Positions 1,548 through 4,500 of a stretch of DNA of 64,000 bases are shown piece by piece. The translations under genes were made by a program, and so were the position numbers. Below the pieces are notes generated by a model that searched no databases, was not told the origin of the DNA, and worked only from the letters and a program-made list of their open reading frames with translations. Source of the DNA: an uncultured Solirubrobacterales bacterium. GTDB taxonomy: Bacteria; Actinomycetota; Thermoleophilia; Solirubrobacterales; JACPNS01. The DNA is taken from positions 30,577-94,576 of the forward strand of contig CAKZMQ010000021.1 of NCBI GenBank assembly GCA_937128795.1, given 5' to 3'. Each line of letters starts with the position of its first letter. Position 1 is the first letter of the stretch.

Positions 1548-4500
1548 TCATCGCCCGCGACGGCCAAAGTTGATGCCAACGGGGGCGACTGCCCTTATGT
1601 CGGCAGCTTCGCCCATAACCTTGCGCGCCGCATCGCGATACTCATCTGGCAGTTCACCGTTCATCGCCGCCAGCGCCGCATCAGTATCGATACCCATCTT
1701 CTTGCGCAGATCCTGCTCACCGGTCTCTGGGCGTTTGATCTGGCGGACGGCCTGCTTCACATCGTCGCCGAACAGCGCTTCGACACCGGTGGCCAGCACG
1801 TTGACTGCGCCGGTCTTGCGCTCCAGCTTGCCATTGACGGTCAAAAGCGGTTCGCTGCGCACCGTCACGCGATAGCGCTCGTAGACGCGCGGCGGCAGGA
1901 TCACATTGACCACGCCGACCTCGTCCTCGAGCAGCACGAAAACGACGCCCTTGGCGGTCCCCGGTCGCTGGCGTGCAACGACGAGACCGGCGACCTTGAC
2001 CGGTTGGTTCTCGTTCAGGCGGTCGAGTCGGTCTGTCGGGATGACGCCCTGCGCCTGGAGTTGTTCGCGCAGAAGGGCCAGTGGATGGGTGCCAACGGTC
2101 ATCCCGGTCGCGGCGTAGTCGGCGATCATCTCATCCCAGTCGTTGAGTTTGTTCAGCTGGGGTGCTGGGAGGGGTGGAATCGGTAGTGCCAGCTGCGCGC
2201 CGGCGAAGTCGTCGTTGCTCTGGTTGGCGCTGCTGCGACCAGCGTTGCTCCGAGCGCCGCTCTTCTGGTTTTCGTTGTTCTGGTCGCTGCTGCTCCGAGC
2301 GCCAATCGCCGAGCGCCTCGATCCACCACCGGCCGAGCGACGACTGCGGCCGAGCGGCTCACCGGCAGGAGCAGCGCCGAGCAGCCAGAGTGCTTCGCGG
2401 CGGCCTCGACCACGCGGCCGTGTTGCCTCGGCTGCGCGGCCTGGGCCGCCTGCTCGGTCTGCACCGCCTGTTCGGTCTGCACCGTCTGCGCGGTCTGCGC
2501 CGTCTGCGCGGTCTGCGCCGTCCTCGCCGTTTGCCGCCGATCCGCCCAAACCAAGGTGGTCGCAGGCCCCAGCCCAAGCCAACTTCTCCAAGGTCGAGCC
2601 ATCCGCCCCCGACCGCCCGGCCAGATCCTCAACAGAGACAAACTCTCCGCCCTCCCTGCGCGCGGCCACCAGCGATCTCAGTCCCTCCTCCTTGGCGCCC
2701 TTCACATACCCCAACCCGATCCGTACGGCCAGCTCCCGCTGCGGCGACCCCGTCAAATCCGCAGCCCCTGATTCCAAAGGGATGCTTTGCCGCATGCCCT
2801 GTCCATGCGGCAGCTGCATGGACAGGGCATGCGGCACTTTCTCGCTTTCGAATGCGGAATTTTCCCTCACACTCTGTCCTTGAGGAACCCTCACAGACAG
2901 AGCATGAGGAAATTTTCCGCTTTCTGAGGCAACTTCGCCTTGGACGCGCCCCGAGGCACCGGCATCCTTCGCCTGCAAATCCGTTTGACCCCCGCGCTCA
3001 AAACTCTCGACCACCGAGCCCCCGCCTTCGGACTCGCCGCCACCCGCAACTTCAACCCACTCCACCGAGCACTCCACCCCGCTCGCGTTCACGTCCACCG
3101 GCAATACCGGGATGCCCCGCCGCTGCGCTTCGTGCGCCAGCGCGTCGGGCAGATAGAACCCCATGGGCTGCTCGTTCATCAACCCGCACAGCAACTCTGG
3201 CCCATAGTGGCAGCGCAGCCAAGAGGTTTGGTAGGCGAGCAGCCCGAACGCTGCCGCGTGGGCCTTCGGAAATCCAAAGCCCGAGAAGCCGATGATCTGG
3301 GCGAAGACATTCTCGGCGACGTCATGCGGAACACCCTTCTGCGCGGCACCTTCGACGAAGCGCAGGTGATAGGCAGCGAGTGCCTCGTGACTGCGCTTGC
3401 GGCTCATCGCCCGCCGCAGTCCTTCTCCTTCGGAGGGAGAAAAATCAGCCATCACCCGCGCCACCTCGATCACCTGGTCCTGGAAGACGATCGACCCCAA
3501 GGTGTCCTCGAGCACCTCCTTCAAGAGCGGGTGCGCATACGGCACCTCGTAGTCAGGGTCGGCTCGCAGCTTCTTGCGACGATCCAGATATGGATGGACG
3601 GCGCCGCCGGTGATCGGGCCCGGGCGAACGATCGCGACCTGGATGAAGATGTCGTTGAGATTCTCCGGCCGTGAGCGAACCAGCATCTGCATCTGCGCGC
3701 GGCTCTCGATCTGGAAGACGCCGGTCGTCTCGCCGCTGCGGATCTGCTCGAAGGTCTCGGGGTCGTCGAGCGGGATGCGTGAGAGATCGACGTGCTCGCC
3801 GCGAGCCTCGCCGATGTAGTCGACCGTGCGCTCGACCGCCGAGAGCATGCCCAGACCAAGCAGGTCGATCTTCGCGAAGCCGGCGTCGCCGCAGGAGTCT
3901 TTGTCCCACTGAACGATCTGGCGGTTGACCATCGCCGCGGGGACGATCGGGCAGACCTCGTCCAGTTGATCCGTGCTGATCACCATGCCGCCGGAGTGCT
4001 GGCTGAGCCCGCGCGGCAGCCGGTGGATCTGCGGCAGCAGCCTGAGCATCGCCTGCCAGCGCGGCGAATCGAGCAACCTCGCGCCCGACGGCGAATCGGT
4101 CAGCACCGCGCGCACGCGGTCCTCGACCTGCTCGCCCCTGCTGCGATCGGTCTGGCGGATGATCCGTTCGATCTCGGCCGTCGGCAACCCCAATGCCTTG
4201 GCCAGTGAGCGCAACGCGCCCCTCGTTCTGTAGGTCGGGAAGGCCGCCACCAGCGCCGAGTGCCGCTTGCCGTAACGCTCGTGTACGCGCGGGATCAATG
4301 CGTGACGGATGTCGCGGGGGAAGTCGAGGTCTATGTCCGGCAGCGAGGTCAGATCTTCATGCAGAAAGCGGCCGAGACAGAGGTCGGCCTCCAGCGGATC
4401 AACGTGCGAGAGCCCGGTCAAGTAACAGACGATCGAGCTGACCGACGAGCCGCGCCCACGCCCCGGTGGCAGGACGCTGCGCGCCGCGCTCCTTCCGCGC

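Follow-up and report, generated by a model that had tools for sequence, protein, structure and literature searches.

Why a bacterial gene should carry strong DNA palindromes within its coding sequence is the question raised by a 64,000-nucleotide (nt) stretch of DNA from an uncultured Solirubrobacterales bacterium (contig CAKZMQ010000021.1, positions 30,577 to 94,576; hereafter the window). The palindromes lie within a dnaE2-type gene, which encodes an error-prone DNA polymerase III alpha subunit, and are translated as part of it. The explanation that we consider probable is that they represent two overlapping copies, at 2766-2933, of a selfish or neutral element resembling the repetitive extragenic palindromic (REP) sequences, tolerated in a disordered loop of the polymerase.

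Two overlapping hairpins in a loop of DnaE2

The features concerned are the following, in window coordinates, with covariance-model scores in bits.

1548..5633, minus strand: dnaE2-type error-prone DNA polymerase III alpha gene, from the open reading frame (ORF) and its translation of 1361 amino acids (aa)
2915..2841, minus strand: unit A, 75 nt, encoding KFPHALSVRVPQGQSVRENSAFESE
2840..2766, minus strand: unit B, 75 nt, encoding KVPHALSMQLPHGQGMRQSIPLESG
2841..2933, minus strand: element copy A, 78.7 bits on the sense strand versus 40.4 on the antisense strand
2766..2858, minus strand: element copy B, 97.1 bits, a perfect inverted repeat with the in-frame reading ...SEKVPHALSMQLPHGQGMRQSIPLESG
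2790..2834: core perfect palindrome of copy B, with 18-bp arms and a 9-nt spacer
2754..3038, minus strand: whole insert relative to an empty-site orthologue, ~93 aa (residues ~866-960), from the alignment of filled and empty DNA
2934-3055, minus strand: G/E/S-rich stretch VAGGGESEGGGSVVESFERGGQTDLQAKDAGASGRVQGEVAS of ~45 aa, upstream of copy A and absent from the empty-site relative

Two adjacent 75-nt units read through in frame had been predicted at 2766-2915, and both are present on the minus strand, where they encode the peptides then quoted. Unit B contains the predicted perfect 18-bp inverted repeat with its 9-nt spacer (arms 2790-2807 and 2817-2834), which can be extended to 21 bp, leaving a 7-nt loop. 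The imperfect palindrome of the other unit, given as 12 of 14 pairs, was roughly right: in the register of unit B, unit A forms 14 Watson-Crick pairs out of 18, and 3 more as G:U on the sense strand. Both units belong to longer imperfect palindromes, whose arms measure 41 nt (80% complementary) and 36 nt (78%). An origin of these inverted repeats by chance is excluded: none of 100 shuffles gave two matches of the 18-mer pair, perfect stems of at least 14 bp appeared in none of 30 block shuffles of the window, and the sense-strand RNA folds at −110.5 kcal/mol (z = −10.3).

The original prediction spoke of a 75-bp tandem module, and the two units stand; they are better described, however, as overlapping ~93-nt members of one repeat family that differ in age. 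Over their full length the units are identical at 47 of 75 positions, rising to 70% over a 64-nt core; this is too much divergence for the 75-nt period to be picked up by Tandem Repeats Finder. In copy B, an outer arm and an A-rich bulge lead into a 21-bp perfect stem with its 7-nt loop; the returning stem strand is followed by a second A-rich bulge and a GCTTTGGAATC-like outer arm. Copies A and B overlap by 18 nt, within an outer arm common to both. The stem of copy B matches those of two dispersed copies of the family, L029 and L035, at 39 of 40 positions. Judged by its perfect stem and its family match, copy B appears to be young and copy A older and decayed, so that the pair is probably not a simple recent tandem duplication.

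Alignment with orthologues delimits the insertion, as had been proposed. Among 45 relatives, the interval from CSVEW to LAVRIGLGYVKG measures 4-8 residues in most and 15 in P0002, as against 108 here. P0002, encoded at locus L007, is the closest relative with a different sequence (94% aa identity over the whole gene) and does not have the ~93-aa insert; at the DNA level, the window and L007 align with a single clean gap of ~279 nt. The site is likewise empty in L041, L042, and L043. The expectation of only a short linker before the helix-hairpin-helix (HhH) motif was borne out by E. coli Pol III alpha, which has 12 residues (820-831) where the window protein has 119, with flanks aligning to 819 and 832. 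These alignments place the insert at the turn of the beta-hairpin preceding the HhH motif. In an AlphaFold model of residues 560-1035, made with 49 homologues, confident beta-strands (856-861 and 966-971) flank the insert, while insert residues 866-960 have a predicted local distance difference test (pLDDT) score of ~28, below 50, and are coil with no secondary structure. As the original prediction anticipated, the insert is thus predicted to be a disordered, length-variable surface loop.

In databases, the 1361-aa ORF is matched best by proteins annotated as error-prone DNA polymerase or DNA polymerase III alpha, from metagenome-assembled genomes (MAGs) of Solirubrobacterales and Thermoleophilaceae. 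One of them, P0001, comes from a separate NCBI record (a 36-kb contig); it is 99% identical, of equal length, and has both units. Its Pfam domains, which the best matches in general carry, are PHP, DNA_pol3_alpha, finger, HHH_6, and OB (Pfam assignments throughout cover 10 of the ~46 likely window genes and the called genes of the fetched loci). At 1361 aa, the window DnaE2 exceeds its relatives by ~130-200 aa (the closest distinct relative has 1228 aa), owing to the REP-like elements in the loop. A second, larger and non-palindromic length expansion lies at 2432-2539 (protein residues ~1030-1165), where a 9/18-bp tandem repeat encoding GADRADGADRADGADR... precedes a long low-complexity stretch, rich in R/G/S/N, that comes ahead of the OB domain; this expansion makes up the remainder of the 133-aa length gap to the closest distinct relative.

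A dispersed family and the patchy occupancy of the site

The palindrome is not confined to dnaE2. A pattern scan with CCGCATGCYCYGTCCATGC across one genome per species (185,579 species) returned 29 matches. Of these, 23 are lone arms in unrelated bacteria, where ~17 were expected from the information content of the pattern and the size of the collection. The remaining six all fall in one MAG, Solirubrobacterales ME_XS_2208_bin_78 (JBMYXO01), on six different contigs, so that the check for a dispersed repeat called for in the original prediction succeeded in a sister genome. This MAG is the assembly of L007, in which the dnaE2 site itself is empty. Its six loci comprise three complete hairpins (L018, L029, and L035), a half copy (L020), and two copies at contig ends (L009 and L036). 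All four copies with readable surroundings are extragenic by Pfam annotation of the neighboring ORFs. More diverged intergenic copies, including one in the window, were recognized with a covariance model, R1, built from 11 copies.

L029 and L035: between convergent genes (Pfam of neighbors)
L018: between co-directional genes (Pfam of neighbors)
L020: upstream of the isoleucyl-tRNA synthetase gene (Pfam of neighbors)
Window 9096..9196, minus strand: diverged copy in the gap between dxs and the imuB-like gene; R1 match 9106-9186, 29.8 bits, E ~5e-6
L041 8900-8981: diverged intergenic copy (R1)
L003 8897-8978: diverged intergenic copy (R1)
L006 7180-7260: diverged intergenic copy (R1)
L044 1310-1389: diverged intergenic copy (R1)

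The window copy at 9106-9186 folds as RNA at −59 kcal/mol (z = −6.5) and retains the family architecture in the model alignment. That architecture consists of an outer stem of approximately GATTCCAAAGC / GCTTTGGAATC, A-rich bulges on both sides on one strand, an inner stem of 15-23 bp, and a small loop. Two contigs of JBMYXO01 start within a copy (L009 1-47 and L036 1-46). This suggests that the repeats disrupt short-read assemblies, so that the true copy number would be higher than counted. Mostly intergenic, with nearly identical stems in genomes whose neutral sites have diverged by 22%, and with contig breaks at copies, the family behaves like REP repeats or those of the miniature inverted-repeat transposable element (MITE) type. 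A search of Rfam, whose scope is described RNA families only, gave only sub-threshold generic hairpins (microRNA precursors, 25 bits against gathering scores of 90). The family is previously undescribed and specific to a clade of Solirubrobacterales (Thermoleophilia).

Other collections added little. A scan of the JGI metagenomes with a second stem type (CAACMTACGTC...GACGTADGTTG) found 3 unrelated hairpins and is uninformative on dispersal, because the collection does not hold even the dnaE2 copies themselves. A scan of viral contigs gave 1 candidate match.

The same DnaE2 loop holds one element in six further orthologues (L001, L003, L004, L005, L006, and L008). In all seven lineages, the dnaE2 copies lie in one orientation, in which the A-rich strand is sense. 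The codon phase of the G in the invariant GTC is identical in 7 copies from 6 loci, namely both window copies and those of L001, L003, L004, L005, and L006; L008, a partial gene, was left out of this check. Their stems belong to different types (CCGCATGCYCYGTCCATGC; GCCCCAACCTACGTCTTGCC; CTGCATCAACATACGTCCTGCCG; GCAGCAAGGACAGTCCTTGC) that nevertheless align in register around an invariant C..CA......GTC / GAC......TG..G. Across 11 copies of the 20-bp stem, 97.3% of cells are paired and both sides have changed at 14 of the 20 pairs. These values were reached in none of 500 shuffles, and sliding the partner arm by 1-3 columns reduced pairing to 30-40%. The sense-strand mismatches comprise 9 G:U and 1 C:A.

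The encoded peptides are unrelated between stem types (PHALSMQLPHGQGMR versus PQPTSCRPSAGRRLG versus QQGQSLRTMQGQSLL), while base-pairing is retained. The conserved feature is the DNA symmetry and not the protein, the reverse of an outcome that would have refuted the original prediction. We give very little credence to two other accounts, that the 25-aa repeat is a selected protein-level domain or motif with incidental DNA symmetry, or that the palindrome is an assembly artefact. The peptide repeat is indeed read through with no stops, but the complete difference between orthologous peptides and the pLDDT of ~28 speak against a selected domain, and the same two units in the independent record of P0001 speak against an artefact.

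Filled and empty alleles are scattered on the DnaE2 tree:

Window: filled; sister P0002 empty
P0007: filled; sister P0008 empty
P0010 and P0014: filled; nested among empty P0004, P0005, P0006, and P0009
P0015: filled; next to empty P0012 and P0013

Stem identity can be compared with the divergence of the host genes at four-fold degenerate sites:

L003 versus L005: stem 25/40, four-fold divergence 27%, proteins 95% identical
L003 versus window copy B: stem 36/40, four-fold divergence 45%
L005 versus L006: stem 32/40, four-fold divergence 43%
Window copy B versus dispersed copies of the sister MAG: stem 39/40, four-fold divergence 22%

By this measure, stem type is decoupled from the host gene tree. 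The flanks of the element track the host weakly, with L003, L005, and L008 sharing 27-30 of 41 positions as against ~23 of 41 with the window copy. The empty sites of L041 and L042 contain TGGATCGGA / TCGGCGATCAG, which resemble the right end of the element; they could have served as a target or be the scar of a deletion.

These patterns bear on the number of insertions. One reading is that many independent insertions took place, with loop codons (GAGTGGAT / CGGA...) that resemble the terminus of the element (TTTGGAATCGGA) serving as a specific target. The discordance of stem types with the host tree would be expected, as would the resemblance of the L041 and L042 sites to the right end, although a deletion scar explains the latter equally well. 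The weak agreement of the flanks with the host is less easily accommodated, and identical orientation and codon phase would demand targeting of nucleotide precision. We consider independent insertion improbable, even though a second family of palindromes has entered the same loop.

This second family was found in L044, from a distant Solirubrobacterales lineage, whose DnaE2 (P0030) has a 112-aa insert. Its loop contains four hairpins from another family, built as dimers of 13-17-bp stems (TGCCACGGGTCGGCA / CGTTCTGCCGACCCGTG, plus a CAACGTCCGGCA variant), which also occurs outside the gene:

L044 12821-13019: loop hairpins, two dimers, TGCCACGGGTCGGCA... and TGCCAACGTCCGGCA...
L044 21538-21628: intergenic dimer of this second family, flanked by genes for a thiolase and an HD-domain protein, ~8 kb from the dnaE2 loop

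The DnaE2 loop preceding the HhH motif is thus a permissive and repeatedly occupied landing place for two palindromic families.

Neutral passenger or regulator of SOS mutagenesis

The role of the hairpins has to be considered in the setting of the gene, which the following features describe:

7388..8974: IMS-family (imuB-like) ORF (Pfam)
5684-5697: perfect palindrome CGAAC-N4-GTTCG, CGAACATATGTTCG, directly upstream of dnaE2
8896-8909: perfect palindrome CGAAC-N4-GTTCG, CGAACGTATGTTCG, directly upstream of the imuB-like ORF

Judged by the actinobacterial consensus, both CGAAC-N4-GTTCG palindromes are putative LexA boxes. The gene has the Pol III alpha domain set, an imuB-like neighbor, and a putative upstream SOS box, as is typical of DnaE2 (ImuC), and its surroundings fit an SOS mutagenesis cassette. 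The TTG codon annotated as the start of the imuB-like ORF (8974) probably lies upstream of the true one.

Given this setting, the hairpin might be a selected cis-regulatory element, co-opted from the repeat family, that tunes the output of the mutagenic polymerase. It could act in mRNA as a ribosome roadblock, as a target for a double-strand-specific RNase, or as a protein-binding site, or else in DNA as a cruciform. We think this unlikely. Strong covariation does maintain the pairing of the stem, but intergenic copies show equal stem covariation, and the family is present extragenically at unrelated loci. The mismatches, mainly sense-strand G:U (9 versus 1), and the higher score of copy A on the sense strand (78.7 versus 40.4 bits) would fit a structure selected in mRNA, but a strand bias in C-to-T mutation, acting on the non-transcribed strand, could also produce the G:U excess. 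Likewise, the single orientation in seven lineages, with a single codon phase in the six checked, favors a regulator, while uniform orientation may merely reflect a single origin. The great stability of the fold (z = −10) and the further copies flanking an imuB-like gene with a putative SOS box count in its favor. On the other side, the close relatives L007, L041, L042, and L043 do not have the element, which is therefore dispensable, and an unrelated palindromic family fills the loop of L044.

The account that we favor is instead that of a selfish or neutral passenger. From the observed anatomy, dispersal, empty sites, covariation, and loop location, we infer its neutrality, the means of its mobilization, and the order of events, as follows. 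Since five of the six frames of the element are open (by hand translation of copy B), an insertion in the loop before the HhH motif would simply be translated, adding ~25 residues per unit, and would be harmless to a polymerase made only under SOS induction. A single old insertion of the family would occupy the dnaE2 site, which would account for the shared orientation and phase, and its repeated deletion would have produced the patchy pattern of filled and empty alleles. The core stem would have been replaced from a genome-wide pool of subtypes, through ectopic conversion or re-insertion, and the lineage of the window would in this way have come to hold young copy B beside decayed copy A. Complementarity of the arms may be kept by selection on the hairpin for propagation of the element, by arm-to-arm correction through template switching, or by both. 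In E. coli, template switching at quasipalindromes during replication yields compensatory-looking changes without selection (work of the Lovett laboratory; PMC7202029).

Several observations weigh against this account. The uniform orientation and phase and the 9:1 ratio of G:U to C:A mismatches could point to selection on mRNA, as could the A-rich flanks, whose conservation between L003 and L005 seems to exceed the neutral level. The exact-stem copies found number only six, all in one MAG. A five-frame peptide query of 5.8 billion proteins gave 4 word-sharing candidates and no scored match; since the X spacers may have impaired the search, this is a weak negative for in-frame copies in other proteins. 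No transposase (RAYT/TnpA) was identified among the Pfam-assigned genes, with no search aimed at RAYT made, and no target-site duplication was identified in the comparisons of filled and empty sites, whose junctions are fuzzy (resemblance of TGGAT / TGGAAT). For these two reasons, mobility is read only from the distribution of the copies. Finally, the account does not cover the ~45 aa that precede copy A, a G/E/S-rich stretch with no hairpin, no covariance-model match (with filters off), and no similarity to the fetched loci.

A more speculative idea concerns the loop rather than any one element. The loop might be more than permissive and recruit palindromes repeatedly, from two families here and from REPs in other phyla, because a stable hairpin in frame slows translation or flags the transcript for cleavage; this would constitute a post-transcriptional brake on a mutagenic polymerase, additional to LexA control. 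Alternatively, synthesis dependent on DnaE2/ImuB might itself favor the insertion of hairpins into its own gene. We consider this idea improbable.

Other candidates were rejected. For an intrinsic terminator, a consensus scan did not flag the dnaE2 hairpins, and the intergenic copies are of mixed orientation to their neighbors by our own tally. For programmed frameshifting, there is no in-frame X XXY YYZ heptamer, and the A-run belongs to the bulge of the element on both sides. For an integron attC site, a hairpin of a diversity-generating retroelement, or a CRISPR repeat, no associated feature was seen.

Further palindromes and a putative mobile gene pair were observed around the cassette. 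A 334-bp nested palindrome (window 8954-9287) lies just upstream of the putative SOS box of the imuB-like gene, with perfect 29-bp terminal inverted repeats (TTGCAAGGTCCGAGGTTGCAAGCGGGATC), a perfect 17-bp inner repeat (9016-9032 / 9217-9233), and, at its center, the diverged window copy of the family found in dnaE2. The 29-bp terminal repeat has no other occurrence in the window or in 43 loci, and the whole could be a larger MITE-like element. At 9314-9336, on the minus strand, a canonical intrinsic-terminator-like hairpin (AGACCCGGC..GCCGGGTCT then TTCTCTTT) stands downstream of dxs, so that the copy at 9106-9186 is not the dxs terminator. Very strong intergenic palindromes also adjoin imuB at L001 7454-7521 (22-bp stem, GCCGCAGGGAGGGGAAACTCCC) and at L006 8805-8878 (31-bp stem starting CGTAGAC, with terminal GTAG as in tagged REPs). 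Between dnaE2 and a cation-efflux gene, two small plus-strand ORFs, 5665..5973 (AbrB/MazE-like) and 5978..6364 (Doc/Fic-like, motif HPFVDGNKR), were identified only by motif and by the Pfam assignments of the neighbors. A MazE-Fic pair occupies the same position in L005 and L043 and is absent from the sister MAG at L007, and for this reason resembles a toxin-antitoxin insertion subject to gain and loss.

Relation to known palindromic repeats

The original prediction likened the element to both REPs and mycobacterial interspersed repetitive units (MIRUs). MIRUs are small repeats of actinobacteria with unit lengths that preserve the reading frame; they are direct tandem repeats of 40-100 bp, intergenic in operons, and are not hairpins. 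The MIRU half of the comparison fails because MIRUs are direct repeats without hairpins, whereas the units described here are palindromic and elsewhere dispersed singly rather than in tandem. The REP half holds, given the empty orthologue, the dispersed copies, and the disordered loop.

The closest precedent is the REP survey of Di Nocera, De Gregorio and Rocco (2013; BMC Genomics 14:522; PMC3733652), in which intragenic copies are concentrated in replication and repair genes. In-frame cases there include dnaE2 of O. terrae (Oter_4053, aa 934-971) and of S. wittichii (Swit_1119, aa 166-246), as well as dnaE of R. conorii (aa 853-861); intragenic dimers and clusters encode 20-80 aa, and different REPs occupy about one site in recB of Xanthomonas (PMC3733652). 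Like those REPs, the elements described here are short dispersed palindromes, mostly extragenic and occasionally in frame, dnaE2 included, and they have the broad features of REPs, being stem-loop-forming imperfect palindromes, with stems of 18-23 bp in every copy and multiple dispersed, mainly extragenic copies. They differ in having a two-tier hairpin of ~80-93 nt with an inner stem of 15-23 bp, as opposed to the 5-13-bp stems of the survey, and in the occupation of one loop across many lineages by two families. Their host, a member of the Thermoleophilia, is actinobacterial, and the word "Actinobacteria" has 0 occurrences in the main text of that paper. They also fall outside the GTAG/CGTC-tagged REP superfamily, as there is no terminal tag and the invariant NGTC is internal to the 20-bp stem. 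As to MITEs, terminal inverted repeats are trivially present, the whole element being palindromic, and the junctions are fuzzy, with no clean duplication.

Palindromic elements of Rickettsia (RPEs), the classic in-frame case, are described in a later summary (PMC10969869) of Ogata et al. (2000, Science 290:347; 2002, Genome Res 12:808) as lying in frame within functional ORFs and adding a translated peptide compatible with the fold. The in-frame palindromic repeat translated as an extra peptide segment is common to both. RPEs are ~100-150 bp long, AT-rich, confined to Rickettsia, and found in many genes per genome, whereas here dnaE2 is the only gene known to be hit and there is no sequence similarity. 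With a Solirubrobacterales host, the element does not belong to RPE-1 to RPE-10, and behavior alone is shared. Quasipalindrome correction (PMC7202029) offers selection-free copying from arm to arm, but it is a mutational mechanism and not an element family.

In-frame REPs in dnaE2 of other phyla were therefore already known, and what is new is the case in Thermoleophilia and an undescribed repeat family. For annotation, the family accounts for the extra length of DnaE2 and for MAG contig breaks at repeats. This locus also provides an unusually clean natural allelic series in one protein loop (empty, single, double, and different-family) with extensive compensatory change, which could serve to decide between hairpins as neutral passengers and as modulators of SOS mutagenesis, and to investigate the way in which palindromes maintain their symmetry.

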